A DNA stretch of 64,000 nucleotides from Escherichia phage nomo, in the sequence record MN850578.1. One strand, 5' to 3'. Below are positions 9,306 to 64,000 of this stretch, one piece after another. How positions within the stretch are numbered: the stretch's first letter is position 1; each line of letters begins with the position of its first letter. A program made the position numbers and the translations under genes. Below the pieces are notes generated by a model. That model searched no databases and was not told where the DNA came from. It saw only the letters and a program-made list of their open reading frames with translations.

Positions 9306-9713
9306 TCAGTCCTCGCATTTAACAAATTTTTCTATAGATCCACCAAGCACAGCTTGTTGTTTGATGGCACTTTCTTCATCATAGTGGATAGACTTATGTT
9401 CCGTACCTCCAAACTTACCTGTGTGGAAGGTGTGCACCCAAATCTCTTTAGGAAGGGATTTATTCTCTTCCTCCACCAACTCCCACATACCCCACAAGTG
9501 ATCTGTGATATCTCTGATGAAATATCCCTCGCCGAGGTTTGTATTCACACTGTAAGCTGATTCGTGATCTCCGCAAATATAACGGAAGGCAGTGTACTCT
9601 TTACCTGGTGTGAAGTGAGTATCCATTAGTATGGCTGTTAAAGAATAAGGGTCTCGAAAGCCCAAGAACTTTAGTTTAACAATTTCGACATTTACATCTG
9701 CAAGATTATCCAT
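9306..9713 (-). CDS. hypothetical protein
   Basis: Start moved to internal ATG (MDNLADV..) preceded by aggag; track start 9770 lacks RBS. Confidence 0.45.
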   Translation of the reverse strand: MDNLADVNVEIVKLKFLGFRDPYSLTAILMDTHFTPGKEYTAFRYICGDHESAYSVNTNLGEGYFIRDITDHLWGMWELVEEENKSLPKEIWVHTFHTGKFGGTEHKSIHYDEESAIKQQAVLGGSIEKFVKCED

Positions 9714-9874
9714 GACGATCTCCTCTGTTTGGTTGGTGAGAATTATATATAGATCTGGTGGTGGTGTCAAGCTTAATTTTAAGAGATCTGAGAGGGTATT
9801 TTATTCAGGAAGGCAATCGCACAGGGTGGAGAAATTTATGAAGGCACAGGCCTCGTTTGAGGCCTTAAATTCTA

Positions 9875-10255
9875 TTATGACACTTTGACATAGCGCTCTG
9901 ACAAAGCTGGGAAGCCAAAAGTAGTGCCTATACTACCATAGGCTATCCACCATTGGAGTTCATCGTGACACCATTTTCCGATCAGGAAGGTGCTGGGATA
10001 GCGGGTCAGTATTTTGGCATAAGCTTTAGGATCTGCATCTTCTGGGATAATGATGCTTGGAATATCTTTGTTATGACCACAGCAGCAGTTTAGCGTTTTC
10101 AAACCTGCTGCCCACAAACTCATGATAGGCTTAGCCATACACTTATCAAGGCACACACGTTTTTTGCCGTCACGAAGATTTTTAGGCACATCAACGATAA
10201 CATTTGGATGCTTGGCACCTTTCACTTTCCAATTATAGGATTTACACTTGCACAT
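9875..10255 (-). CDS. hypothetical Cys-rich protein
   Basis: RBS ggag 8 nt upstream; CCCGH motif; no family recognised. Confidence 0.5.
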   Translation of the reverse strand: MCKCKSYNWKVKGAKHPNVIVDVPKNLRDGKKRVCLDKCMAKPIMSLWAAGLKTLNCCCGHNKDIPSIIIPEDADPKAYAKILTRYPSTFLIGKWCHDELQWWIAYGSIGTTFGFPALSERYVKVS

Positions 10256-10481
10256 TTAATCAGTCTCCGTCTAGAAAGCCGCACTATACGTTTTTGAGGT
10301 ATACTTTACTTAAAGTCTTTATCACCTGCCACGATTGCATGAATCCACTCATTGTGATGCTCAATAGCGGTGAGATGTAACATGATGTAGTGATCGTCAT
10401 TGCCAAACATGATATGATAGGCTTTGGCAGCATTTTGATATAACTTCCACATCAGGTAATGATATCTTCGCCTCATGGCTC

Positions 10482-10946
10482 TTACTCCGGTGCAGGATCT
10501 GGGTAATCTTCAATAATAAAGGGCCATCCGTTCCGCTTAGCCTCAGACTTATACTCAATCTCCTTCATTGCAAACTCTAACTGATTCTTAGCCGGAATAC
10601 ATGCCGGAGAATCATCAATCCAGATATCTGGGTAGATATCAAACTGCGCCAGGTAGGCTGCCTTCTGAACACCACCTGTGTAGAACACACCAACATCGAG
10701 CTCCTTGCGCCAATACTCAATGTCTACATTGTCTTGAGTAATGAATCGGAAAGTCACAAGGTAGACTGTCCACCCCTCCTTCTTCAGATCCCTGATCAGG
10801 CGGGAGAAGATGAAAGGGCTCGCATTAAACGTTCCATCAAAGTCGATGGCAATGATGTGCGTGCCGTGGCGAGTCTCATATGGATTGCTCGTGGTAAGAT
10901 TGCTGTAATTAAAAGGGACTTCTTCCCCGCAGTAGCTGTAGTCCAT
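10482..10946 (-). CDS. HAD-superfamily phosphatase-like protein
   Basis: Motif I IAIDFDGT (DxDGT) and downstream IWIDDS; start taken at ATG after GTG. Confidence 0.55.
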   Translation of the reverse strand: MDYSYCGEEVPFNYSNLTTSNPYETRHGTHIIAIDFDGTFNASPFIFSRLIRDLKKEGWTVYLVTFRFITQDNVDIEYWRKELDVGVFYTGGVQKAAYLAQFDIYPDIWIDDSPACIPAKNQLEFAMKEIEYKSEAKRNGWPFIIEDYPDPAPE

Positions 10947-51882: not shown

Positions 51883-52190
51883 TCGCTATTACGCCAACCG
51901 TTTTAGATTGGTATCGGCAACGCATAGCGCCTCCGCTGGCTATCTTCAAAGATGCGGAAGCAAAACAACGCCGGATCTCAATACATGAGATCATCAACCT
52001 TAACGCTGGAGGCACACCATACCGCCCAGGACCTGGCCGTGAGATGGACAATACGTTAGCGATCCTGAAGATACGCCGTAAACGGTCCTCCCTTACGCTG
52101 GACTCATTACACACAATGCAGCCTCCGTTCCAGGTGACCGGGAAACGGATCGCCAGGTCCTGGACAAAGGCCAATGATCGGACCGTATAA
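51879..52190 (+). CDS. hypothetical protein
   Basis: ATGA overlap; RBS aggggggt. Confidence 0.45.
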   Translation: MIAITPTVLDWYRQRIAPPLAIFKDAEAKQRRISIHEIINLNAGGTPYRPGPGREMDNTLAILKIRRKRSSLTLDSLHTMQPPFQVTGKRIARSWTKANDRTV

Positions 52191-52270
52191 ATAAAAGTGT
52201 TTTGGTACTGATTTTGGGGTTGACTTGTTCGGCCCCTTTTGCTATTCTTATTAAACGGGCGGCACTTGGG

Positions 52271-52299
52271 AACAGGGGGAGACAATCACCAGGCCTGCC
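52271..52299 (-). repeat. conserved motif, inverted copy
   Basis: Reverse complement reads ggcaggcctggtgattgtctccccctgtt, matching 42644-42677. Confidence 0.6.
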
Positions 52300-52324
52300 T
52301 GTCATATAAGAACTATAAAAACCG

Positions 52325-52353
52325 TTGACATCTGCCATGGGGTGAGGTAACAT
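52325..52353 (+). promoter_or_regulatory. sigma70-like promoter
   Basis: TTGACA, 17 bp, TAACAT; followed by hairpin gggcaaaagtgccc. Confidence 0.5.
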
Positions 52354-52407
52354 TTATCTTGAAGGGGCAAAAGTGCCCACACAACAACCAGAAGAGAGGA
52401 AAACATT

Positions 52408-52680
52408 ATGTCAAGCTGGATTAATCAAGAAGTCGAATCACGTTTTAATGCTATTTGGGATCTCATCGAAAAAGAGGACGGAACATCAAGCCCTTATCTC
52501 AATAATCTTGAATTCCATTTCGTGGAAGCGATGAACGCAGAACATGATCACGAAGGTGGTGCGGATGAGTTCGCTAAAGGGTATGGCTTCAACAATGCCA
52601 ACGAAATGATCGAGGCGGTTGTACTCCAGGCTGAGGAAGATTATCAATTAAAAACGCTTGAATTCTGCCGCCGTAAGTAA
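52408..52680 (+). CDS. hypothetical protein
   Basis: RBS agagagga. Confidence 0.5.
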   Translation: MSSWINQEVESRFNAIWDLIEKEDGTSSPYLNNLEFHFVEAMNAEHDHEGGADEFAKGYGFNNANEMIEAVVLQAEEDYQLKTLEFCRRK

Positions 52681-52742
52681 TAAGATAATGACACGGGCCA
52701 AAAGGCCCACTAAACAAAAACCACATAAAGAGGAAAAACATC

Positions 52743-53006
52743 ATGAAACGTCTTGACCAGCTCAAACTAGTTCAATATATGGCTTATCGTGTTCTGGAAG
52801 TCCAGAAAGGTAGCAAAAAAGAGGTTTGCGAGAAAGCTTATAAGATCTTTACCCGCAAAAAAGATGACTGGATGCTACGCCAGACCAAAAAGGCTGACAT
52901 CTTGGGGTACCTGGAAGAAGAGATCCGACTTGAAGAACAAGAAGAGATCCGCCGTAGTGAGGCAGATTATCAGGCAGCTTGGGAAAACTGGATGAGCAAC
53001 AAATAA
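52743..53006 (+). CDS. hypothetical protein
   Basis: RBS aaagagga; preceded by hairpin gggccaaaaggccc. Confidence 0.55.
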   Translation: MKRLDQLKLVQYMAYRVLEVQKGSKKEVCEKAYKIFTRKKDDWMLRQTKKADILGYLEEEIRLEEQEEIRRSEADYQAAWENWMSNK

Positions 53007-53025
53007 TACAACAAGATGAACGGTC

Positions 53026-53050
53026 AGGGGCTTAAAGCCCCTTTCTTTTT
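53026..53050 (+). terminator. rho-independent terminator ending the plus-strand early block
   Basis: aggggc-ttaa-agcccct then ttctttttg. Confidence 0.7.
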
Positions 53051-55500
53051 GTCTTCTCTTTTCCTACCATAAACGGCCCTACCTGGCAAGTGGAATAATT
53101 GACGAGCCATCAATCCCACACACTGTACAAATATACATGGAAAATAACTATTGCATAATTTTTCATTGTGTGGTAGCAAGGCCATTTTTACACGTTTTTC
53201 CTTCCAAAATTGCACGTAATGCAGCATTTGCACAAAATTTAACCTGATGCATATCTTCAATAGCTTGTCAACAACTAAAAATCTTTATAAGTCATACACT
53301 TACATAACTACAAAAACGTTTTCTACGTGAAAAATCGAGTATAACTATAGCCGCCAGATCTCAGAATTTACGTACGCTCGCCATTCTATAGCCTGCTAAG
53401 CATTTATTCCAACCATAGAATAACTGAATAGTCAATACCTGCATAAAATAATTATTCGTGTAAACTGCATAACATAAATCGGCCCAGGTGTCAACATTTT
53501 TCGTAAACAGTCTGGAATTGTCACGTTAGGTTACCATAAGTAGAGAAATCTTTAGTCGTCTAATGTTTACTGTACGTTACTATATTAACTGAAATCATTA
53601 GATGACTAATAGAAAGATAAGAAATAATTAACAATACAATTATTTTATCTGTAACAATAAGGCAACTATGCAAACGAATGGCATGGCGCGACGGAGTCGC
53701 GACATAATATAAAAGCAGTAACCATCACCCCCGTGATAGTTTGTCTGCAAACTATTAATCAGATCATAGTTGCCTTGTATTTAGTTAATCATGACATAAC
53801 AAGCAAGGCAACTATAGATCTGCTAATAGTTGCCCTGCTTTTATATTATGTCATGCTAATTATAATCAGTGCGATTATTGTCATGTATAATTATTGTCAT
53901 GCAAACGAATGGCATGGCTGATTATCGGTGTGTAAACAGTCAATCATGTAAATGGTTAGCATGTGAACAATCAGGAATGTAAACAATCCAGTGTGTAAAC
54001 TAATAGGTGTGTAAAAGTGTCATGTTGTGTCAGTTAGGTCACATTATGTCAGACAAGTTTTTCTCCTCTTTGTCAAGTGCTGCATGAAAAATTTACAAGC
54101 TTGTATGGTAGCATTTTTGCGGCCCTGTTTACATTCAGGAGTGTATGTATAATCCTTGTTGTGTGGGCGTTTAGACGTCTGGACGGTCAGAAGTCTGCAG
54201 GTCAATATCTAATCTATTGGCTGCTAACTATATCCCCCACAAATAATAAGAAATATAATTGTTATGTGCGTAAACAGTAACCCATGTTATCAATCCCTGT
54301 ATGTATCGCCAGTTGTGCGCATAATGGGTATTATGTTAAATTGCCCGTAATGATAACTATTCTCACAATGATAGGTATTCTCATTCACCCCCACAAGATA
54401 GGTTGCAAATGTTGTGCCACTGTGTGAACGGCCTCACCTATTAATTTGCCTCACTGCCTCGATATTTGAGAATTGTTATAAGAATGAGAAGTATTCCCAT
54501 TCCGTCCGCCTGGCAGCACTCCAGTCGCTACGGCTCCTGACAGGGCAGCACTCCTGTAGGTCAGGTCAAAATCGTGGTAGAACTGGACCTGTTCGGATAT
54601 TTCTGGCTGACTCTTCAGGTCTGTGTGGGAAAAGCCAACCCCTCCGGCGGGGCAGGGGATATCTGCAGGAAAATTGCAGGTCAATTAAAAATTTACGTGG
54701 TGTATGAAGCGCTCTTCAGGCAAGGCATGTATTAGAGGATGAAACCCTCTTCAGGCAATGATATTTGTGGGTGGGATATTTGCTGGAAAGCCAGATATGA
54801 CGGGACTCCCGGCGGGGCAGGGGTAGTACAGACAGGGAAAATATGAGGATGTAATTGGGGAAATTGATCAGACAGGTAGAGTATGGAATATGTTACAGGT
54901 ATGTTAAATATGGAGGTTGAATATCTGTAGGATTTGTGTGTAAAATCAAAGACTTAAGGGGTGTTGTGGTATTTTCTATAAATAATTCAAGTTTAATAGG
55001 CAATATTTGTCTCTATCCGCTTTGTGTGGTAAACAGATTCAGATGAAATTGGTTTACAAGTGTATACATAATATACAAATTAAAGATACAAGAAACCCCC
55101 CTCCCCCCTCGGCTACCATTCACCTTTTCCTCTGACTGGTACTTAAACACTTATTCAGACTCTTCAGGTTATCACCCATATATCATATGGCAGTGACTGG
55201 TGTCCTCCGGCCCCTCTTTCGTCACCCGTCCGCTTCGCCATGCTAATGCCATAGCCAATGGTTCGGTTGTTCACCCTGTTCACTCAGGTGTATCTCCATA
55301 CCCCTTCAAACCGAAGAGAACAGAAAACCCGAATTACTCGGTAAAAGAAAAGAGAAGAACTTAATTTTATCAGGATAGGCAAGAATGTCAAGGCATGACT
55401 GCTCACTAAACAAGCAAACAGTCATGTGTGGAAGGTAAGTGATTGTGGTGGTGGGAAATTTAGTTGAAAGATGTGTTATAGGTGCGCTTCCAGCACTTTA
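53051..55500. repeat. 2.4-kb non-coding, AT-rich, repeat-dense region between convergent gene blocks
   Basis: No ORF with RBS; contains palindrome ggcaactatagatctgctaatagttgcc (53797-53824), inverted ggcaactat copies, direct repeats gcaaacgaatggcatgg (53660, 53891), GTAAACAG-type repeats, about 75-bp imperfect direct repeats with ccggcggggcagggg (54643, 54799) and ctcttcagg (x4). Confidence 0.7.
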
Positions 55501-55520
55501 GCCTGGCAGCTAATTGTGTG

Positions 55521-55736
55521 TCAGTCCAGCGGTTCATCCTCTACTTCACTGAAATCAATGTTCATGGTCTCTTCCCAACCATCGATCTCAGCACAAGAGT
55601 GGAGTTCTTTAGGGTTTACTCCCAAAGCCTCAGCAACAGAGTCTATATTTAACACCTCTGGTAGGTATGATTCATCGAATTCAAGGTAAATCAGGCCACG
55701 AGTGTTGTCAGCCCCACCAAATATTTCTATCTTCAT
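55521..55736 (-). CDS. hypothetical acidic protein
   Basis: RBS gaggag. Confidence 0.5.
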   Translation of the reverse strand: MKIEIFGGADNTRGLIYLEFDESYLPEVLNIDSVAEALGVNPKELHSCAEIDGWEETMNIDFSEVEDEPLD

Positions 55737-55857
55737 GAAATCTCCTCTGGAAATGAGAGTGTGAACAGGGTTTTATACGTTCCAATGCACAAGAATTATA
55801 CACGTTTGCCTCTTCAGGCCATGCTTTAGCATGAGGAACCTGTGTGGGCTCGGTGCT

Positions 55858-56274
55858 TCATAGTCTACCACCTCTGAACTCTTCGTGCTCAGGCATAATA
55901 GAGAACCAGATATCTACGATGTCTCCCCACGTCAGGTCATCAGCCTCAGGATCTATCTGGGACGAAGATGAAGAGTCATCAGAATCTAAGTTTTCCTCTT
56001 TCACTGGCTCAGCCAATGGACAACATATGGTCACTCCTTCAGATGTCTCTTCAGATGCATGCGTGTTGATCATGTTCCACCCGTGAGTATTCCGGCAACA
56101 GCCGCTATGGACGTAATGATCATCAGGATCACCACTAAAACTTCGGACAATGTTCTCATTGTGTATCCCATATTCTCCAAACGATGTGTGGATACTATCA
56201 CTGGAACGGTAATGTGTCAACAGAAACGCCGCGAGGGTTTGGTTAAAATCCGAGCGTATGGTGATTTGGGTCAA
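55858..56274 (-). CDS. hypothetical protein (doubtful start)
   Basis: 138-aa ORF, TTG start only, no SD. Confidence 0.3.
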   Translation of the reverse strand: MTQITIRSDFNQTLAAFLLTHYRSSDSIHTSFGEYGIHNENIVRSFSGDPDDHYVHSGCCRNTHGWNMINTHASEETSEGVTICCPLAEPVKEENLDSDDSSSSSQIDPEADDLTWGDIVDIWFSIMPEHEEFRGGRL

Positions 56275-56433
56275 AACGGACGTGCGTTCTCGCTACGCTC
56301 GAAAGAGAGATTTGTTTGTAGGAAGCTCTTAAACGCTCTGTAATGAGATTATCTGTCCAAGGTATGCAATCGTGCACCAGATAAAGAAAAGGACGCCACA
56401 GAGCGTCCTAGGTGTCTTAAATTTGATATTTTG

Positions 56434-56733
56434 TTATACCCATGAGGGTTTATCAAGGTTGGAGTAGCTGAAAGGTGTCAAAAGGTGATTGTCAAAATCT
56501 CTCAAACTATCCAGATCTTTCTCCTCGTCCTGACACCATCTGTGCCTACATTTATTGTTGTAGTGCATAGAATGCATAGCGTTCTGCAACTTAACAGGTA
56601 CAAGTGATTCAGGAGTAGATAGTATTGTTGGGTATGCCAGAACCACCTCAAACAGTGGAAACACATCGAAACTAAAGTCTACCTCTGCAGAGGTTGATGG
56701 CATATAGGAGTATTTAGCCGCCTTTGTAGACAT
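56434..56733 (-). CDS. hypothetical protein
   Basis: Start moved to ATG (MSTKAAK..) after gaggtgg. Confidence 0.45.
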   Translation of the reverse strand: MSTKAAKYSYMPSTSAEVDFSFDVFPLFEVVLAYPTILSTPESLVPVKLQNAMHSMHYNNKCRHRWCQDEEKDLDSLRDFDNHLLTPFSYSNLDKPSWV

Positions 56734-56741
56734 AATCCACC

Positions 56742-57074
56742 TCACACAGGTTTGATAATACCTTCACCGAATAGCTCTTCGTATCTAATCTTGTCCGGAT
56801 CCCACTCCTGGATAATTTCGAAGACAATATCCAACCCAGGAACAATCACTTCTCCAGTGTCAAGCTTAGCAAGAACAAAACCTGAAGGTTGAATGGTTTC
56901 CCAGTTACGGCGATCAGAATAAAATACTTCGAAAATATCACCAACCTCAATCCGTTTCTGTTGCTCAAGATGCTCAAGGTTCTCTTTCATACGGATGCAG
57001 CGTATTTTTCGTGCAGGCCATAGACCACCTGCATCACGTTCATTCAATTCTTTTACAGTGATCGGTATACCCAT
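56742..57074 (-). CDS. hypothetical protein
   Basis: RBS aaggag. Confidence 0.5.
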   Translation of the reverse strand: MGIPITVKELNERDAGGLWPARKIRCIRMKENLEHLEQQKRIEVGDIFEVFYSDRRNWETIQPSGFVLAKLDTGEVIVPGLDIVFEIIQEWDPDKIRYEELFGEGIIKPV

Positions 57075-57129
57075 CTCAAATCTCCTTCATAGATAGTAAA
57101 AAGAGGGGCCCAAGCCCCTCTCTTTGTCA

Positions 57130-57435
57130 TTATTCTACAGAGCGTTTGAACAGAATGTCTGCCTCGGACATGTGCTCAACCTCTTCTTCGATTTTAGCTC
57201 GACGTTTTTCAGCCTCATAGCGAATATCGAACTCGGTAGCCACCAGAGATTTGATGAATTTAGGAGAATACAGGTGATCCTGCTTCTCAACGAGAATGAT
57301 ATCCTTAATGGCATCTTTCAGATCTTTAATCTGAAGTTGGAGTTCCACCAGTTCTTCGATTGTCTTGCGAAGGCGATCACGCTCTGCAGTGTCAGAAGGA
57401 AGAGAGGTGAACAGTTCAACTTTAGATTTAGCCAT
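57130..57435 (-). CDS. hypothetical coiled-coil protein
   Basis: RBS aaggag; plus-strand overlapping ORF rejected. Confidence 0.5.
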   Translation of the reverse strand: MAKSKVELFTSLPSDTAERDRLRKTIEELVELQLQIKDLKDAIKDIILVEKQDHLYSPKFIKSLVATEFDIRYEAEKRRAKIEEEVEHMSEADILFKRSVE

Positions 57436-57463
57436 AGTAAGAGTCTCCTTATGTTGTTTTAAA

Positions 57464-57717
57464 TTAACGTTCTACAAAAATACCGTTCAGTTCAATAACC
57501 AGGAATTTCTGGTCTTCACTGTCGTCTCGTGCCAGCACCTCACAGACGTATCGGTCATCTCCATCATCATCGCAGTCAAATACAAGACTGAGGACTTTAT
57601 CATGATAAACCTTCGCCACTACCGCCTCGTAAGTATTGCCGATTGTGAATCCAAGATAATCTCCGATGCATTTGACAACAACATGGTCGCCAGCATTCAA
57701 GTCAATCTTCGTCATTA
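57464..57717 (-). CDS. hypothetical acidic protein
   Basis: Start moved to ATG (MTKIDLN..) after aaggag. Confidence 0.5.
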
Positions 57718-57842
57718 CTGCGCTCCTTGGGTAATAATACTGTATGTAAAACTTTAACCAGAGATGTGAATAACGCCCCAAAACACACCGATAGCGCTAA
57801 AACAGACAAGGCCATCATCAAAGCTTCAGTAAAATCAGTCAT
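57702..57842 (-). CDS. small hydrophobic protein (46 aa)
   Basis: ATG after gaggtgagga; MTDFTEALMMALSVLALSVCFGALFTSLVK..; not in track. Confidence 0.4.
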   Translation of the reverse strand: MTDFTEALMMALSVLALSVCFGALFTSLVKVLHTVLLPKERSNDED

Positions 57843-57861
57843 TCCTCACCTCTTGTTAGTC

Positions 57862-57890
57862 ACTATACTATCATTTATCCTTGCCGTCAA
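57862..57890 (-). promoter_or_regulatory. sigma70-like promoter (minus strand)
   Basis: Minus-strand TTGACG, 17 bp, TATAGT, upstream of 57842 peptide. Confidence 0.5.
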
Positions 57891-58134
57891 GAACTTTTTT
57901 AAATCTTTCAGGGATATCCCCCGTTCTTAGATAGTTCATGACCTCACAAGGTTCCCACTTGAATTTCTTACAGAGCAGGGCGGCTGAGATTGTTTCATTG
58001 CGAAAAGAAAGGATATTAATATCCCACTCTGAGAACCCCAACTTCCGAAGGGTAGCTACAGAAATCCTCACCGCAACCCAGCAGCAAAAACATGCAACAA
58101 ACGCCACTGCTACAACCCACATCAGGATGTTCAT
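57871..58134 (-). CDS. hypothetical membrane protein
   Basis: RBS aaggtg; N-terminal helix ILMWVVAVAFVACFCCWVAV. Confidence 0.5.
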   Translation of the reverse strand: MNILMWVVAVAFVACFCCWVAVRISVATLRKLGFSEWDINILSFRNETISAALLCKKFKWEPCEVMNYLRTGDIPERFKKVLDGKDK

Positions 58135-58143
58135 ATAAGCACC

Positions 58144-58227
58144 TTACTGAAATACAAGACACAGTGTTAAGGTTACTGACCAGCAAATAATTAACAGTGC
58201 CGTTGCAACCTTGGCAAGATTTATCAT
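58144..58227 (-). CDS. possible small hydrophobic peptide (27 aa)
   Basis: ATGA overlap with upstream stop; MINLAKVATALLIICWSVTLTLCLVFQ. Confidence 0.3.
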   Translation of the reverse strand: MINLAKVATALLIICWSVTLTLCLVFQ

Positions 58228-58511
58228 AGTGCCTCTAAGATTTCATACCCTTCGGGTCGGAATACAAGCCACTCCGTGGCTCCGTTTGGTCGATACGCTT
58301 TATACAGAACAACCTGGTCTCGGCACATGCACATGGCTACATAGTTTTCATCCACACCTGCAGCCTGCATTGCATCTTCTTCTCCGGCAACTGCTTTGCT
58401 TACAACTTCCTTGGTAGGCAGGTGTGCGATCAGCTCGTCACCATCATTAATTCCAAAATGGCTGAGTTCGCCGTTGGTATCTTTAATCTTAATCTTAACC
58501 AGATCTTTCAT
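58224..58511 (-). CDS. hypothetical acidic protein (MK[IV]K paralog group)
   Basis: RBS ggggga; N-terminus MKDLVKIKIKD. Confidence 0.5.
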   Translation of the reverse strand: MKDLVKIKIKDTNGELSHFGINDGDELIAHLPTKEVVSKAVAGEEDAMQAAGVDENYVAMCMCRDQVVLYKAYRPNGATEWLVFRPEGYEILEAL

Positions 58512-58840
58512 TAGTCTTCCCCCAGGTTCAAAGGTCCTAAGATTTCATATGCCAGATTAGAAGTTACCAGAGGGTCTTCTGCATCTTTAGTATTGTACCA
58601 CCCGTGAATAACCAGAGTCCCACTTTGTTTCATATCCAACTGGAACTGTTCTGCAGTTTCCTCATCCATCTCTAAGATCTCCATGAGGTATTTGATGTTA
58701 GGAAGGTATGCAGCTGTTACAGTTCCCTCCACCAAACCTTCGGGCCAACCTACATCCGGATGACAAGTAGGAACCAGATTAGTCAGCTTAATAGTGTACG
58801 CTTTTTCTGCACGAGCCTTCAGTAACGGGTCAATCTTCAT
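58511..58840 (-). CDS. hypothetical protein
   Basis: RBS gaggagg. Confidence 0.5.
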   Translation of the reverse strand: MKIDPLLKARAEKAYTIKLTNLVPTCHPDVGWPEGLVEGTVTAAYLPNIKYLMEILEMDEETAEQFQLDMKQSGTLVIHGWYNTKDAEDPLVTSNLAYEILGPLNLGED

Positions 58841-59190
58841 TATTCGTCCTCCTCTTCGGTGCCTGCTTCCAGTAATAAGTTAAGAATATCTTCTGCACAA
58901 GGTTCATAGAACTCTTGGCCTTCATTATCGATGATTTTGTAGTCATCTCCACGAATAATCAGGGGATCACTCTCAAAATTATCGAGACCTTTAACAACTA
59001 CAACACGATCGATTGCCATCATCGTAAGAACTTTATCGACATCTTCCTCTGCTACACCATACTGCAGCAGAATGTCTTTGGTAGGAGGAACAGCATCCAC
59101 CACAACGCCGTTACCAAAACCTTCTGGAAGTTTAGCTAAAATATCTTCCGGAACCACATTCACATCAAAACCGGTAATTTCTACTTTCAT
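58840..59190 (-). CDS. hypothetical acidic protein (MK[IV]K paralog group)
   Basis: RBS gaagaggtg; MKVEITGFDV.. Confidence 0.5.
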   Translation of the reverse strand: MKVEITGFDVNVVPEDILAKLPEGFGNGVVVDAVPPTKDILLQYGVAEEDVDKVLTMMAIDRVVVVKGLDNFESDPLIIRGDDYKIIDNEGQEFYEPCAEDILNLLLEAGTEEEDE

Positions 59191-59451
59191 TTACAGCACC
59201 TCTTCGTCAACTACTTCATAAAAATGGCCTGGGATTGCAATAGCGTTCTCACCTTCACCTACAAACACAGTTCCGTCAAGAATCAACATCATAAGAATTT
59301 CTGTAATATCCTCTTCCGGAACGTTGCCAAAACCTTTAATCAGCTCGTAGGTTGGAATATTTACCTCTAAGATGTCACCATCTTTAGAACGGAAATCAAC
59401 ACCGTCCTGAATCTCTGCCTTTTCAAGGTTTTTCAATTTAATCTTCATCAA
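59191..59451 (-). CDS. hypothetical acidic protein (MK[IV]K paralog group)
   Basis: RBS caggaga; MMKIKLKNL.. Confidence 0.5.
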   Translation of the reverse strand: MMKIKLKNLEKAEIQDGVDFRSKDGDILEVNIPTYELIKGFGNVPEEDITEILMMLILDGTVFVGEGENAIAIPGHFYEVVDEEVL

Positions 59452-59480
59452 TCGGTCTCCTGTCTTGTTAAGATGAAGGT

Positions 59481-59509
59481 ATTATTTCACACAGGGTTGG
59501 CGTTGTCAA
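59481..59509 (-). promoter_or_regulatory. sigma70-like promoter (minus strand)
   Basis: Minus-strand TTGACA, 17 bp, AATAAT. Confidence 0.55.
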
Positions 59510-59527
59510 CACCTGTGTGCAAGAAAA

Positions 59528-59923
59528 TTACTGAAACAGTGCGGATAAATTACCTTCTGGTGGGAACTTATCTGCCAAAAACGGTGTTAGCACAGTAGCC
59601 TTCTGAAGATCTGGGGTCCACTCGTTGTTCAGAACATCCCAGTAGTACGCAATGTTGCTGTGTGGGTGCCGCATTACGAACTTTTTCCCTTCGTAGTCAT
59701 CTGAAACCTCTACAGAAGAAATAACAACAGAATCTTCAAGGGTTTCTTCATAGAAAGATCCGCCTTCAAATTTCCAACGAGATGCAAGAGCCCCTGCCTT
59801 GAACGCTGCAGATAACGGACTGTCGGCAAGAACATACATTTCTTGCACTCTGTCGCTGCGATCTTTGCTTCTTACGTTGTATACAGTATCTGAGCTATAC
59901 TCAACACGGTATAGGCTTACCAT
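59528..59923 (-). CDS. hypothetical protein (paralog of 61735 gene)
   Basis: RBS gaggagg; shares HP.S...YW.....WTP block with 61735-62133. Confidence 0.5.
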   Translation of the reverse strand: MVSLYRVEYSSDTVYNVRSKDRSDRVQEMYVLADSPLSAAFKAGALASRWKFEGGSFYEETLEDSVVISSVEVSDDYEGKKFVMRHPHSNIAYYWDVLNNEWTPDLQKATVLTPFLADKFPPEGNLSALFQ

Positions 59924-60255
59924 TACCGCACCTCCTCAATAACTTCCACATCTGAACCTACCACAAATGCAAAAGGACAGGTTTCATGAAAGACATCCGG
60001 ATCGCCGCCAAGCTTGCTAACAATCTCTCCACCACTAATAAACACAAGCTCACCGATATTCATCAGATTGCTGAAATAGTACCCATAATGATTAAAGAAT
60101 GCAGCAGGGTCAGGTAGATTAGTAGCCTCAAGCACTACATCGGTTGAGGTTACTTTCTTATCATAACCTCTCGCCTTTTGAGATGCAAGATCTGCAGAAT
60201 CCTCAGGCGACCGGAGATGCACAGGAATTGTTTCACCAATAAAGCGTACTTTCAT
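59923..60255 (-). CDS. hypothetical protein
   Basis: Start moved to ATG (MKVRFIGE..) after gggtga. Confidence 0.45.
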   Translation of the reverse strand: MKVRFIGETIPVHLRSPEDSADLASQKARGYDKKVTSTDVVLEATNLPDPAAFFNHYGYYFSNLMNIGELVFISGGEIVSKLGGDPDVFHETCPFAFVVGSDVEVIEEVR

Positions 60256-60259
60256 ATTA

Positions 60260-60523
60260 TCACCCAACAACCATAGCTTCAAAAGGAGTCATGAACGAAT
60301 AAACGGCATCATCATCTGCTTCAGGGAATGCTCCCAAAGACTTCATATCTGAGCCCTTGACAAATACAAGGTTTTGATCAAAGGCTTCTTGGGGGTCAAT
60401 CCGATACATATTTCGTAAAATATCGCTTACCTCCTCATCAAGAGGTGAGTATGCTGTGCACGTTTTTCCGATCAAGCTTTGAGAATCAGGGTATCCACCT
60501 GAAGTTTTAAAATAAACAATCAT
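60260..60523 (-). CDS. hypothetical protein
   Basis: RBS agaggtg. Confidence 0.5.
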   Translation of the reverse strand: MIVYFKTSGGYPDSQSLIGKTCTAYSPLDEEVSDILRNMYRIDPQEAFDQNLVFVKGSDMKSLGAFPEADDDAVYSFMTPFEAMVVG

Positions 60524-60569
60524 ATAGTATCACCTCTGGTAAGAGATTGGGACTCCTTTCCCACAAATA

Positions 60570-60597
60570 ATTACAAATCTTCCTTAGCGAGGAAGTA
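60570..60597 (-). terminator. putative minus-strand terminator
   Basis: Hairpin cttcctcgctaaggaag followed by T/A-rich run on minus strand. Confidence 0.35.
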
Positions 60598-60614
60598 TGC
60601 TAATCCAAGCAGGA

Positions 60615-60884
60615 TTATTCCTCTACAATCTCATACACATCAGGAGTTACAATCAACTCTTCTCCGTTACCCGGTGCAACAAACACCACCAAACCTTCAG
60701 GTGTGTGCTTTTTAGCCATCTCGATAACATCTTCTCGCAGAGCTGGCTCCATCAGATCAAAACCTTCACCTAGGGCATCACGAACCACCTTCATATAGTC
60801 CACTGGTTGTGCTTCAACAATCATGCCTTCAACCAGTCCACAGTTTTTGTCTGCCAGCTCAGTTTTGAATAATTTAATTTTCAT
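60615..60884 (-). CDS. hypothetical acidic protein (MK[IV]K paralog group)
   Basis: RBS gaggag; MKIKLFKTEL.. Confidence 0.5.
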   Translation of the reverse strand: MKIKLFKTELADKNCGLVEGMIVEAQPVDYMKVVRDALGEGFDLMEPALREDVIEMAKKHTPEGLVVFVAPGNGEELIVTPDVYEIVEE

Positions 60885-60910
60885 TTAGAGGTCTCCTCAA
60901 TTATTTGATA

Positions 60911-61012
60911 TTAATAGCCGTAACCTAACACATTAACTACAACTGCGATTGCAAACATAATTTCAAAGCATGCAATCTCTACATTTGGGACTAATTTCTT
61001 AATCACACCCAT
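60911..61012 (-). CDS. possible small hydrophobic peptide (33 aa)
   Basis: ATG after gaggtg; MGVIKKLVPNVEIACFEIMFAIAVVVNVLGYGY. Confidence 0.35.
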   Translation of the reverse strand: MGVIKKLVPNVEIACFEIMFAIAVVVNVLGYGY

Positions 61013-61021
61013 TGTAGCACC

Positions 61022-61342
61022 TCATTCTCCAAAGTCAATCTTTACTTTGCCTTTCCCCTTACCTTTCTTTCCACCGCATTTAGCCAGCTGACGTGCTGCG
61101 ACATCTACCATACGGTCAGTTGCCTCGTAAGCATCACTGACTTTAGCCTTGGCAATAACTTCTTTTCCAGAATTGTCAAAAATGAACGCCATAACTTCCT
61201 GGTGATCATTTTCAACTTTTACACTCACACGTGCATAGTTAACAGAGGGATGTAAACGCTCCAGCTTGGACATTTTGCGGGAAATAAAAGATACCATACC
61301 TTCTGTGATTTCTACATTGTTGCCAGTGATTTCAATTTGCAT
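61022..61342 (-). CDS. hpf: ribosome hibernation promoting factor (HPF/RaiA family) homolog
   Basis: N-terminus MQIEITGNNVEITEGM.. parallels E. coli HPF MQLNITGNNVEITEAL; conserved ARQL block; Lys/Gly-rich tail; RBS aaaggaa. Confidence 0.75.
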   Translation of the reverse strand: MQIEITGNNVEITEGMVSFISRKMSKLERLHPSVNYARVSVKVENDHQEVMAFIFDNSGKEVIAKAKVSDAYEATDRMVDVAARQLAKCGGKKGKGKGKVKIDFGE

Positions 61343-61426
61343 AACGTGTTCCTTTTAAGGAAGAGGGAATAACTATCTCTCTTTGAAAACAATGATACTA
61401 AATCTGAAGCGTTGTGTCAACAGTTT

Positions 61427-61717
61427 TTACAGCTTGTTGTCGATAGTTTTTAAAATATCCACAGCAAGATCTGCCATTTTTCGAACATACTCTGCAAACT
61501 CAACAGGATCCTTGATCAAAGAATTCACAGGGTCGTACCCTAGAGCGTTTAAAATGGCTGCAGCATCTACAACCTTCTCATCATTTGCGAAGATCTCTCC
61601 GTCAAACTTGTAGGTCCATTTTGAGTCAACCTTAGCAGAGCAGGGTTTGTCCATGCTTGTTACACCATCGTCTTTAAACTCTCCTGCGTTATCAATATTT
61701 AGAATTAAATCCATCAT
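61427..61717 (-). CDS. hypothetical protein
   Basis: RBS gaggtg. Confidence 0.5.
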   Translation of the reverse strand: MMDLILNIDNAGEFKDDGVTSMDKPCSAKVDSKWTYKFDGEIFANDEKVVDAAAILNALGYDPVNSLIKDPVEFAEYVRKMADLAVDILKTIDNKL

Positions 61718-61734
61718 GGTGACACCTCACTGTT

Positions 61735-62133
61735 TCAGTCTAGCTTTTCTTCAACAACCCCATAACTTGGGGCAGAGTCAAGAGCTTTCTGGTTTAAAAG
61801 TGGCGTAGCAGAATCTGCAAACGGTGTCCAAGTTTTTGTTCTGGCATTCCAGTAATGCTTCACTCTGGAATCTGGATGCACTATAACAAAAACTTTTTCA
61901 CTTGTCAACACATTAATTTCTTCTACACCCTTGCTGATAATTTCTCCGTCGTAGCCCCCAGTCTGGTATCCTTCGTACCAGGTTCTTGCATAGGCATAGC
62001 CAGCCTGCCAGCATGCAGCCTCCTCCGAGGTGGAGACTACGTAGAAGTCTTTCTCAAATTCCGGAATACGCCCTTGCTTTACGCTCCAAGCTCCGCGAAT
62101 TTTCATTGTTACTTTGAAAAGCTTGTTCTTCAT
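61735..62133 (-). CDS. hypothetical protein (paralog of 59528 gene)
   Basis: VIVHPDSRVKHYWNARTKTWTP aligns with FVMRHPHSNIAYYWDVLNNEWTP. Confidence 0.5.
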   Translation of the reverse strand: MKNKLFKVTMKIRGAWSVKQGRIPEFEKDFYVVSTSEEAACWQAGYAYARTWYEGYQTGGYDGEIISKGVEEINVLTSEKVFVIVHPDSRVKHYWNARTKTWTPFADSATPLLNQKALDSAPSYGVVEEKLD

Positions 62134-62134
62134 A

Positions 62135-62389
62135 CTACCGCTCTACAATCTCTACGTCTGTTCCTACACCGAAGGCATAGTAATGTTCTTCCCCAAAGTA
62201 ATACTTGGGGACACCCGCTTTGATCAGATCTAACCCGCGAATAAATACCACACCGTGTGATACAGTGGAATGCTTCTGACGCACAGGATCGTTGTCAGGC
62301 AACCATTCAAAGTACACCGCAGGTACAACCTTTCCCTTCAGGAAGGATTGTCCCAAGTAGACGTTAGAATCAAGAATTTTAACCTTCAT
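62135..62389 (-). CDS. hypothetical protein (MKVK.LDS paralog pair)
   Basis: MKVKILDSNVYLGQ.. similar to next gene MMKVKVLDSSFYIGQ..; both end ..DVEIVE. Confidence 0.5.
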   Translation of the reverse strand: MKVKILDSNVYLGQSFLKGKVVPAVYFEWLPDNDPVRQKHSTVSHGVVFIRGLDLIKAGVPKYYFGEEHYYAFGVGTDVEIVER

Positions 62390-62606
62390 TCTCGTCCTCC
62401 ACTATCTCTACATCCTCACCAAGGGCAAAGTTGTAGGTCCACTGGCTGTCAAAGCAGTCCTGAGATGCACCAGCGGCAATAAGATCTGCACCTTTTATTT
62501 TTAAAAGGTCAGGATAATCTTCGTTAGGGATAGCGGTAAACACTTTCCCCACTAAGGGCTCCTGACCAATATAGAAGCTTGAATCTAAAACTTTAACTTT
62601 CATCAA
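62379..62606 (-). CDS. hypothetical protein (MKVK.LDS paralog pair)
   Basis: See 62135-62389. Confidence 0.5.
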   Translation of the reverse strand: MMKVKVLDSSFYIGQEPLVGKVFTAIPNEDYPDLLKIKGADLIAAGASQDCFDSQWTYNFALGEDVEIVEDENEG

Positions 62607-62890
62607 CGGTCTCCCTCAGGCGGTTGTGGGACGTAAACACTGTTACGAATATCGTCAGCAGTGTAGTAATAAGTGGTTCCAACCCTATCTCGGGCTGCAA
62701 TGTACTCTGCTATACCAACAAGTGCCATTGATTTGGTGGCGTATCTTCCCCACTCGTTAGCTCCCCAGTAGAATTTAGACCAGTAGGGAATAAGACCGAA
62801 CAAATATACCTTTTGACGAACTTCCCAGTAAGTGCCTTTTCCGACAAGTTTAAACTCTACTTCACTACTGTTAATCTTTTTCATTATCAA
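62603..62890 (-). CDS. hypothetical protein
   Basis: Overlap-coupled ORF. Confidence 0.5.
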   Translation of the reverse strand: MIMKKINSSEVEFKLVGKGTYWEVRQKVYLFGLIPYWSKFYWGANEWGRYATKSMALVGIAEYIAARDRVGTTYYYTADDIRNSVYVPQPPEGDR

Positions 62891-63183
62891 TCTCCCTCTA
62901 CCGTGGTCGGATTGTCAGTAAGAAATTGAGCATTGGCTGGAGGCACGCCTGACATTTTCCACACAACCATAAGTTTATAACCAGGCACTCTATTAAGTGC
63001 AGATCGAGTAGAGTTTGTGCACGTATACTTTCGCTTTCCAAACCCGTTCTCCATCATAATCCAGTACCCAGTATCTTTGTCACCAGGTATCGGTAGACCA
63101 CCTTCATCAACCCACTGAATTGACCACGGCACGATGGCTACAGCTTTATATTTAAACTTTTTAAACCACTCAAAAAGTTTCAT
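62887..63183 (-). CDS. hypothetical protein
   Basis: Overlap-coupled ORF. Confidence 0.5.
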   Translation of the reverse strand: MKLFEWFKKFKYKAVAIVPWSIQWVDEGGLPIPGDKDTGYWIMMENGFGKRKYTCTNSTRSALNRVPGYKLMVVWKMSGVPPANAQFLTDNPTTVEGD

Positions 63184-63186
63184 AAT

Positions 63187-63276
63187 TCAGCCCCGCATAG
63201 ACATAATCACTATAAACAGGCAAACAATGAATCCGAATGCCACGCCACCCATAAACGTTAATATTGATGCAATCAT
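63187..63276 (-). CDS. possible small hydrophobic peptide (29 aa)
   Basis: MIASILTFMGGVAFGFIVCLFIVIMSMRG; gagg 11 nt upstream. Confidence 0.3.
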   Translation of the reverse strand: MIASILTFMGGVAFGFIVCLFIVIMSMRG

Positions 63277-63278
63277 AG

Positions 63279-63464
63279 TCAATCAGCCTCGCCTGGCAAC
63301 TCTTCTACCTTAACATGCCGAAAAGTGTTACCGTAATGGTTGATCCATGACATCAGCTCACTTTCTTGCTCTTCCTCTGGGATGAACTCTCGAATACTGA
63401 CAAGTTTTAAGAAAACCCAATCACAATCTGCACCCATTCTACCAGACAGACAATAGTGCTTCAT
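63279..63464 (-). CDS. hypothetical protein
   Basis: Start moved to ATG (MKHYCLSG..) after gggagg. Confidence 0.45.
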   Translation of the reverse strand: MKHYCLSGRMGADCDWVFLKLVSIREFIPEEEQESELMSWINHYGNTFRHVKVEELPGEAD

Positions 63465-63483
63465 AAAAACCCTCCCGCCCGGT

Positions 63484-63678
63484 TTAGAATATTGCTTCTT
63501 CCATTGCGCCTGAGAGCAACAAAGAGGTGATCTGGCTAACATTCATCTCAGACTCTACTTCCTCCCCTTTGAAAGGTTCGCGGCAGAATAGGACTGTTTC
63601 AGGACTTTTACTTCGAACAATATAATACAAATCATTCAATGTGTTGTAGTAATAAGTGTTAAAACGTAAGTTTTTCAT
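63484..63678 (-). CDS. hypothetical protein
   Basis: RBS gaagagg. Confidence 0.5.
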   Translation of the reverse strand: MKNLRFNTYYYNTLNDLYYIVRSKSPETVLFCREPFKGEEVESEMNVSQITSLLLSGAMEEAIF

Positions 63679-63962
63679 TTTCTAGTCCTCTTCTTAGATT
63701 TTTGGGGAGAAACGCTTTCTGCAATACGAGACAGACGTTCTTCTGAAGCCTTACCTACTCCAGGTTTTTTGAGTGGATTATCTTTATGACCACAATCCAA
63801 CTGGATATTGGATACCTCTCCAACTTTGTAAGTCAATTCTAGCAAAAGGTTGTCGTCCTTGTCAAATGTTTTTACGATAAATTTTTTATCGTTCTCCTGA
63901 ACTTCATATCTGGTACCTGCAGTATACAGCATGGTGCCATCAGCATAGGATATCCAGATCAT
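63675..63962 (-). CDS. hypothetical protein
   Basis: RBS aaggagg. Confidence 0.5.
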   Translation of the reverse strand: MIWISYADGTMLYTAGTRYEVQENDKKFIVKTFDKDDNLLLELTYKVGEVSNIQLDCGHKDNPLKKPGVGKASEERLSRIAESVSPQKSKKRTRK

Positions 63963-64000
63963 TGAGCCTCCTTTTGCTGCAACAGCATTAACTCTTTGTT

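Follow-up and report, generated by a model that had tools for sequence, protein, structure and literature searches.

Three families of duplicated small proteins in a gene block of Escherichia phage nomo, a possible accessory counter-defence module

Small early gene clusters devoted to host takeover are known from several phages, such as the SPO1 host-takeover module, the T5 pre-early genes and the small early open reading frames (ORFs) of T4. Ocr, ArdA, Arn and Gp5.9 are small, strongly acidic phage proteins, mimics that inhibit host enzymes by binding, and accessory anti-defence genes have been reported in phage Bas54 (MaxBurger, MZ501093), which was studied by the transposon-insertion sequencing method HIDEN-SEQ (preprint 10.1101/2025.11.20.689424). 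Here we analyse a run of small minus-strand genes at positions 55521..63962 of a 64,000-nt stretch of Escherichia phage nomo (MN850578.1), which we call the window. This block consists of 28 small ORFs of 31-132 aa, and we found that about 12 of the 28 genes belong to three duplicating families, named A1, A2 and B, two of which are linked to a strain-specific requirement in Bas54. Our reading, which we consider somewhat probable, is that the block is a dispensable accessory module for host interaction and counter-defence, made of duplicating small binding proteins. Genes are designated below by their lower coordinate, and all the block features given by coordinates lie on the minus strand.

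Like the SPO1, T5 and T4 clusters, the block has about two dozen packed small ORFan genes, host-type promoters and genes that are individually dispensable in the laboratory; it differs from them in that no sequence relationship exists and in that its strain-specific phenotypes point to variable targets rather than to a general shut-off. Several block proteins are small and strongly acidic as Ocr, ArdA, Arn and Gp5.9 are, but the block shows a compact predicted barrel, some neutral members and no detected homology to these mimics. Concerning Bas54, it has the same gene block, which includes bas54_0140, whose effect against the predicted defence system DS-28 was validated by the authors of that study.

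The window derives from an rV5-like Vequintavirus. Over its full length the block shares 98.7% identity with Escherichia phage ECO111 5-P, and it is 96-98% identical to many other rV5-like phages (genus Vequintavirus); 121 records match it, 115 of them with at least 80% coverage. Eighteen GenBank records (MG0656xx) named "Campylobacter phage", with Campylobacter jejuni as host, are also near-identical to the block, which looks like mislabelling or contamination and not a real host jump. In rV5 the block is represented by ORFs 135 to about 163 and forms the distal end of the long transcription unit "genes 82-163". This unit begins at the genes for ligase, exonuclease, thymidylate synthase, ribonucleotide reductases, PhoH and ClpP (rV5 genome paper), and small minus-strand genes run on past the end of the window. 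The starts of the 28 ORFs were chosen by the annotation of relatives and by Shine-Dalgarno context; relatives annotate here 25-31 hypothetical proteins and one ribosome hibernation factor. Pooled against four relatives, synonymous divergence (pS) was 0.072 and nonsynonymous divergence (pN) 0.008, and because the resulting pN/pS is 0.11 the 28 ORFs can be taken as real genes under purifying selection. Phages of the rV5 type are often considered for use in phage therapy and biocontrol; for the majority of their genes no function is known.

The families were delineated by an all-against-all blastp of the block proteins and by iterated hidden Markov model (HMM) searches against 646 ORFs from the window and the adjoining part of rV5. 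Membership was evaluated in leave-one-out HMM tests scored against 5800 composition-matched shuffled decoys, and pairs by Smith-Waterman alignment with shuffles. Every A1 and A2 member outscored all the decoys, except for 58511, which one decoy equalled. An earlier note, made from the letters of this DNA, had proposed at least three paralog groups in the block; in these tests the similarity held within A1, A2 and B and failed for the genes 62603 and 62887, discussed below, which gave no blastp match at E<=10 in the all-against-all comparison.

Family A1 comprises 62379, 62135, 59923, 60260 and rV5 ORF127, which lies just past the end of the window (leave-one-out E=1.6e-6). Its clearest pair is formed by 62379 (62379..62603, 74 aa, isoelectric point (pI) 4.05, leave-one-out E=9.9e-18) and 62135 (62135..62389, 84 aa, pI 6.8, leave-one-out E=3.4e-14), which overlap by 11 nt and are paralogs by blastp (E=7.5e-16) and Smith-Waterman (z=26.3), both falling in phrog_5009. 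The 110-aa protein of 59923 (59923..60255) carries a long insertion and matches 62135 by blastp with E=3.6e-4 (leave-one-out E=1.5e-5), while the 87-aa protein of 60260 (60260..60523) was recovered in the second HMM round with E=4.7e-7 (phrog_5009 E=1.2e-4, leave-one-out E=6.6e-4).

Family A2 includes four core members, with leave-one-out E-values from 2.1e-7 to 4.8e-3, and one borderline gene. The core is composed of 60615 (60615..60884, 89 aa, HMM E=9.7e-4, leave-one-out E=4.8e-3 with none of the 5800 decoys as high), 59191 (59191..59448, 85 aa, blastp E=2.8e-4 to 58840), 58840 (58840..59190, 116 aa, leave-one-out E=2.1e-7), which bears a C-terminal acidic extension and a net charge of -21, and 58224 (58224..58511, 95 aa, blastp E=0.003 to 58840, leave-one-out E=1.2e-4). 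The borderline member is 58511 (58511..58840, 109 aa), with HMM E-values of 0.002-0.01 and a leave-one-out E of 8.9e-3 (1/5800 decoys as high). We also considered whether A1 and A2 form one superfamily and found no support for it at the level of sequence: hhalign gave a probability of 9.8%, and with divergent members from the metagenomic relative L012 added it was 2.6% (local) or 8.6% (global), none of which is significant. The six-gene group with MK[IV]K starts and EIVE ends that had been put forward earlier does therefore contain genuine paralogs, but these belong to two sequence families and not to one (hhalign 2.6-9.8%).

Family B consists of 61735 (61735..62133, 132 aa, pI 6.7, phrog_7379 E=5.8e-74) and 59528 (59528..59923, 131 aa, phrog_7379 E=2.1e-66). 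The paralogy of these two genes, already suspected from their common HP.S...YW...WTP pattern, was borne out by blastp (E=4.9e-10), by Smith-Waterman (z=17.8) and by phrog_7379, of unknown function, which takes in both over their full length. Four diverse members of the family share 15 invariant columns, including the H-P-x-S and W...W motifs; H86, S89 and R50 are among the invariant residues. Family B found nothing in Pfam and NCBIfam, and its profile gave only E-values of about 0.7-0.9 against the sequences of the PDB.

No function was assigned to any A1, A2 or B member by Pfam, NCBIfam or PHROGs. The last database places 62135 and 62379 together in phrog_5009 (unknown function), separates 59923 (phrog_13661) and 60260 (phrog_13920) from it, and splits the five A2 genes into the five singleton families 12794, 12457, 12155, 12359 and 11868. 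The wider A1 and A2 families go beyond this classification. In the rV5 genome paper the words "paralog" and "duplicat" are absent, and we found no published description of these paralogs.

The arrangement A1-A1-B is found at two places in the block, as 62379-62135-61735 (from 62603 down to 61735) and as 60260-59923-59528 (from 60523 down to 59528). This repetition suggests the duplication of a three-gene cassette, which the pairwise scores cannot confirm: 62379 and 62135 are similarly close to 59923 (z=8.9 and z=7.4, respectively), so that the comparison does not discriminate between the possible correspondences.

Outside the genus, these families are very rare. Family B is represented in 117 phage records, nearly all of them 95-99% identical, and an exhaustive search of its profile against 1.84 billion representatives returned eight matches, three of which (P0094-P0096) were dismissed as spurious, being long repetitive proteins with compositional matches. 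A single-sequence search with 62379 in large protein databases gave eight close relatives, and the A1 and A2 profiles, run against 5.8 billion proteins, hit essentially only orthologs in rV5-like contigs of about 135 kb and one prophage variant. This A1 variant (P0085), which is 49% identical to rV5 ORF127, lies between the Q antiterminator and holin genes in the lambdoid phages mEp554 and mEp013 and in E. coli prophages, and is present in prophages of 13/5426 complete E. coli genomes. The lambdoid prophage neighbourhood has the A1 gene alone in common with the block, no neighbour being related. In one such prophage (L005 6203-8986, GCA_014904275.2) the A1 gene stands among about 11 small unannotated genes of the Q antiterminator-holin interval, a classic moron position.

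Within the rV5-like lineage the copies turn over. One relative is L012, a divergent metagenomic contig of 138.7 kb in which, over the 12.4 kb compared, synteny is kept and orthologs are 25-73% identical. This region of L012 contains a tandem of four A2 genes but only a single A1 and a single B gene, and lacks the 60260-59923-59528 segment which in our block parts 60615 from the other A2 genes. The same syntenic small-gene block of L012 harbours, at 9532-10644, an IS605 OrfB/TnpB (Cas12f-like) gene. In some rV5-like phages the tandem 62379/62135 genes are fused to one hybrid gene (P0005) with the usual neighbours on both sides, and P0008 and P0091 are further chimeras; Bas54 lacks the 62887-63962 segment.

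Structures were predicted with AlphaFold2 for 62379 and 59191, using alignments of paralogs and orthologs (34 and 35 rows). The A1 model, with five strands and a short helix, reached a predicted local distance difference test (pLDDT) value of 91.0 and a predicted template modelling score (pTM) of 0.79; the A2 model, with strands and a 13-residue helix, reached 90.2 and 0.77. Both A1 and A2 are thus predicted to be SH3-like small beta-barrels, from which A2 differs by its helix, inserted between strands. The likeness is one of fold and not of membership, as identities of the models to SH3/KOW/PsaE/Tudor-type domains are 4-25% and block proteins have no Pfam SH3 or KOW match. In a comparison with predicted viral structures, many uncharacterised proteins of 65-90 aa from enterobacterial and other phages resembled the A1 model, with template modelling scores of 0.7-0.89, and no protein of known function was among these matches.

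Functional data exist for Bas54, whose genes bas54_0135 to 0160 are orthologous to the block genes from 55521 to 62603, with 92-100% identity except for 62135 (80%). On K-12, bas54_0135-0164 are all non-essential or intermediate, 0138 having too few TA sites to be classed (10.1101/2025.11.20.689424). When K-12 is compared with the uropathogenic isolate CFE311, five block genes show depletion and are conditionally essential on CFE311, with an adjusted p printed as 0.00000 for each (10.1101/2025.11.20.689424): bas54_0150 (ortholog of 59528, family B) with a log2 fold change of -6.77, bas54_0151 (59923, A1) with -6.17, bas54_0152 (60260, A1) with -7.16, bas54_0157 (61735, B) with -2.14, and bas54_0140 with -5.48. 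The last corresponds to 56434 (56434..56733, 98% identity), which belongs to no A1, A2 or B family. The depletion on CFE311 therefore touches all three genes of the second A1-A1-B cassette and the B gene of the first. The authors validated that the bas54_0140 knockout is sensitive to DS-28 of CFE311, and they dispute widespread polarity (10.1101/2025.11.20.689424). Insertions in 0141, which lies immediately upstream of 0140, and in 0158, which stands likewise to 0157, are neutral. In the main text of the preprint the only Bas54 genes named as anti-defence genes are bas54_0063 and bas54_0140, and we found in it no mention of the paralog families, the A1-A1-B arrangement or 0150-0152/0157. As regards the source tables, in supplementary file 9 of 10.1101/2025.11.20.689424 the sheet resampling_K-12_vs_CFE303 has the command line of sample 311, and its numbers are those of the CFE311 sheet.

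Because some of these proteins are needed only on particular hosts, counter-defence is the simplest explanation. The reading is built on the observed gene set, the families, the purifying selection, the predicted folds, the copy-number variation and the strain-specific requirement in a near-identical phage, while the binding and inhibitory action, the kind of target and an early timing are what we infer. According to it, the block would be the distal end of a long early/middle transcription unit served by host-type sigma70 promoters, in which many genes would be translationally coupled. About 12 of its 28 products fall in three lineage-restricted families born by local duplication, A1/A2 with mostly acidic proteins of 74-116 aa and B with proteins of about 130 aa. 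These would act as stoichiometric binding proteins directed at variable factors of the host, parts of anti-phage defence systems being the most likely ones, and duplication, divergence and recombination among the copies could widen or shift their target range. The genes 59528, 59923, 60260 and 61735 are accordingly proposed as candidate host-range or counter-defence genes. A more specific version, which we regard as speculative and rather unlikely, is that A1-A1-B is a three-protein counter-defence cassette, with two SH3-like adaptors and a partner of about 130 aa directed at one specific E. coli defence system, and that its second copy was inserted into the A2 array to meet another variant of that system.

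Several points weigh against this counter-defence reading. The orthologs of the tandem A2 genes (0146-0149) had no effect on CFE311, and that of the fifth A2 gene, bas54_0153, showed a log2 fold change of -2.78 that was not significant (10.1101/2025.11.20.689424). Depletion of the adjacent genes 0152-0150 could partly be a local polar effect. The phenotypes come from a preprint and from a related phage, in which the orthologs of the depleted genes are 98-100% identical but stand in a different genome. Finally, the early timing rests on promoter matches and gene order, and we found no Vequintavirus transcriptome in the literature.

The observations could also be read in other ways. The block products might be host-takeover (shut-off) factors that bind conserved core machinery of the cell (RNA polymerase, replisome, ribosome or division apparatus, for example), as in the early small-gene clusters of other phages. 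Host enzymes are known to be inhibited by small acidic early proteins elsewhere among phages, and the block encodes a hibernation factor homolog and a putative transcriptional regulator, contains sigma70-like promoters and lies downstream of nucleotide-metabolism genes on the same strand, all of which would suit such a role. On the other hand, the dispensable or intermediate status of all block genes on K-12 speaks against targets in the core machinery, phenotypes seen only on a clinical isolate point to strain-variable targets, and the families are limited to one phage genus and a few lambdoid prophages, with copy numbers varying among relatives; we consider host takeover possible but unlikely. 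The charge of the proteins raises the question of whether they are acidic nucleic-acid mimics which, like Ocr, ArdA, Arn and Gp5.9, titrate defence enzymes that bind DNA, for example restriction enzymes or nucleases resembling RecBCD. The median pI of the block is 4.73, while it is about 5.75 in the rest of the window, and the strongest net charges are those of 58840 (-21), 55521 (-16) and 59191 (-12). Nevertheless classical DNA mimics have an elongated shape, while the modelled members are compact predicted beta-barrels of 74-85 aa; two family members, 61735 (pI 6.7) and 62135 (pI 6.8), are close to neutrality, and the block also contains basic proteins; some of the acidity resides in C-terminal tails that encode the ribosome-binding site of the next gene; and searches in Pfam and NCBIfam gave no match to any mimic family. 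Mimicry is for these reasons improbable in our opinion. The suggestion in the earlier note that such proteins often act as mimics or inhibitors of host proteins can be retained in part, as an action on the host and not in core phage functions fits the Bas54 data, but there is no sign of mimicry in the compact barrels. Acidity itself was overstated in that note, which spoke of about 25 small acidic proteins: the run of small ORFs is real and 19/28 proteins have a pI <5.5 (45-48% in the rest of the window, on a rough ORF set), but the block also has six basic proteins, and the pI of 61735 and 62135 is near neutral.

The tails lead to a further explanation, namely that the paralogy is an artefact of gene packing, MK starts arising from the preferences of the start region and acidic ends from embedded Shine-Dalgarno sequences. 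When two genes are separated by only a few bases, the ribosome-binding site of the second is embedded in the final codons of the first: GAGGGAGAT are the codons for V-E-G-D ending 62887, GAGGGAGACCGT those for P-E-G-D-R ending 62603, GAGGAGGTGCGG those for E-E-V-R ending 59923 and GAAGAGGAGGACGAA those for E-E-E-D-E ending 58840. In all, six tail types (VEGD, PEGDR, VEDENEG, EEVR, EEVL and EEEDE) are encoded by GAGG/GGAG-rich DNA 0-15 nt before the next start codon, and 14/28 proteins begin with MK. For one proposed pair this explanation holds. The basic proteins of 62603 (62603..62884, 93 aa, phrog_12340) and 62887 (62887..63183, 98 aa, phrog_8932) had been listed as a third paralog group, but they are not paralogs: no BLASTP alignment was obtained at E<=100, Smith-Waterman gave z=-1.0, neither protein recovered the other in the HMM searches and the two proteins fall in different PHROGs families. 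They share only the tail, and since the "EGD" tails are embedded Shine-Dalgarno sequences, these account for the false pair and for part of the impression of acidic tails. As a general explanation it is highly improbable, and for A1, A2 and B we rejected it: the full-length relationship is supported by blastp, by leave-one-out HMM tests and by composition-preserving shuffles, and two pairs are grouped independently by PHROGs. Moreover, the "YEI[VL]E" ending truly characterises the family, since it is retained in 60615 and 58224, which are followed by gaps of 89-91 nt. It should be noted, as a caution, that in packed operons alike acidic C-termini can be mere embedded ribosome-binding sites.

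The packing of the block is tight, with overlaps at 8/27 gene junctions and gaps of at most 30 nt at 20/27, so that the description of the genes as overlap-coupled applies to the former and not to the remaining junctions. Concerning internal promoters, 24 sigma70-like matches were found in the block against 18.1 +/- 4.4 expected, which is no overall enrichment; the nine best all lie on the minus strand (9/9), and two score 11/12, both within intergenic gaps. One is TTGACA-17-TATCAT at 61392..61420, in the 84-nt gap upstream of the hibernation factor gene, corresponding to rV5 P144; the other is TTGACA-17-AATAAT with an extended -10 TG at 59481..59509, in the gap of 79 nt that precedes the tandem A2 genes, corresponding to rV5 P150. 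The internal sigma70-like promoters claimed earlier are matched by annotated rV5 promoters at these two positions. A GC-rich palindromic hairpin at 57102..57121, just downstream of 57130, coincides with an annotated rho-independent terminator of rV5. A scan of 52000-64000 against Rfam gave no match.

Among the other genes, 61022 (61022..61342) encodes a ribosome hibernation factor homolog (HPF/RaiA), matching Pfam PF02482 Ribosomal_S30AE with E=1.6e-14 and 54.8 bits (gathering cutoff 23.7) over profile positions 1-83 of 88. It is placed in the middle of the block with its own sigma70-like promoter, and its Bas54 ortholog is non-essential on both K-12 and CFE311 (10.1101/2025.11.20.689424). The gene 57130 (57130..57435) encodes a putative transcriptional regulator of 101 aa (phrog_639 "transcriptional regulator", E=1e-21), with a faint resemblance, below cutoff, to the GapR-like DNA-binding domain PF10073 (E=0.04), and is the most conserved block gene in L012 (73% identity). 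Four block proteins have transmembrane-like hydrophobic stretches: two small proteins of 46 and 87 aa at 57702..58134, and those at 60911-61012 and 63187-63282. At 55740-56430, where the two widest intergenic gaps are found (121 and 360 nt), gene calls vary among relatives from one to five tiny ORFs of 29-70 aa, and the coding status of 55858-56274 on the minus strand is uncertain.

Beside the block, between the plus-strand genes and the first minus-strand gene, about 2.2 kb (53300-55500) have no convincing ORF. This stretch is the "non-coding" box of the rV5 paper and corresponds to an intergenic region of about 2 kb in Bas54 without tolerated transposon insertions; its role may be that of a replication origin or of some other cis-acting element. 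All four copies of ATAGTTGCC present in the window fall in 53661-53834, as two inverted pairs, with 0.53 copies expected per 64 kb. Two perfect repeats lie close by, an inverted one of 18 nt (53701-53718 / 53835-53852) and a direct one of 20 nt (53668 / 53899).

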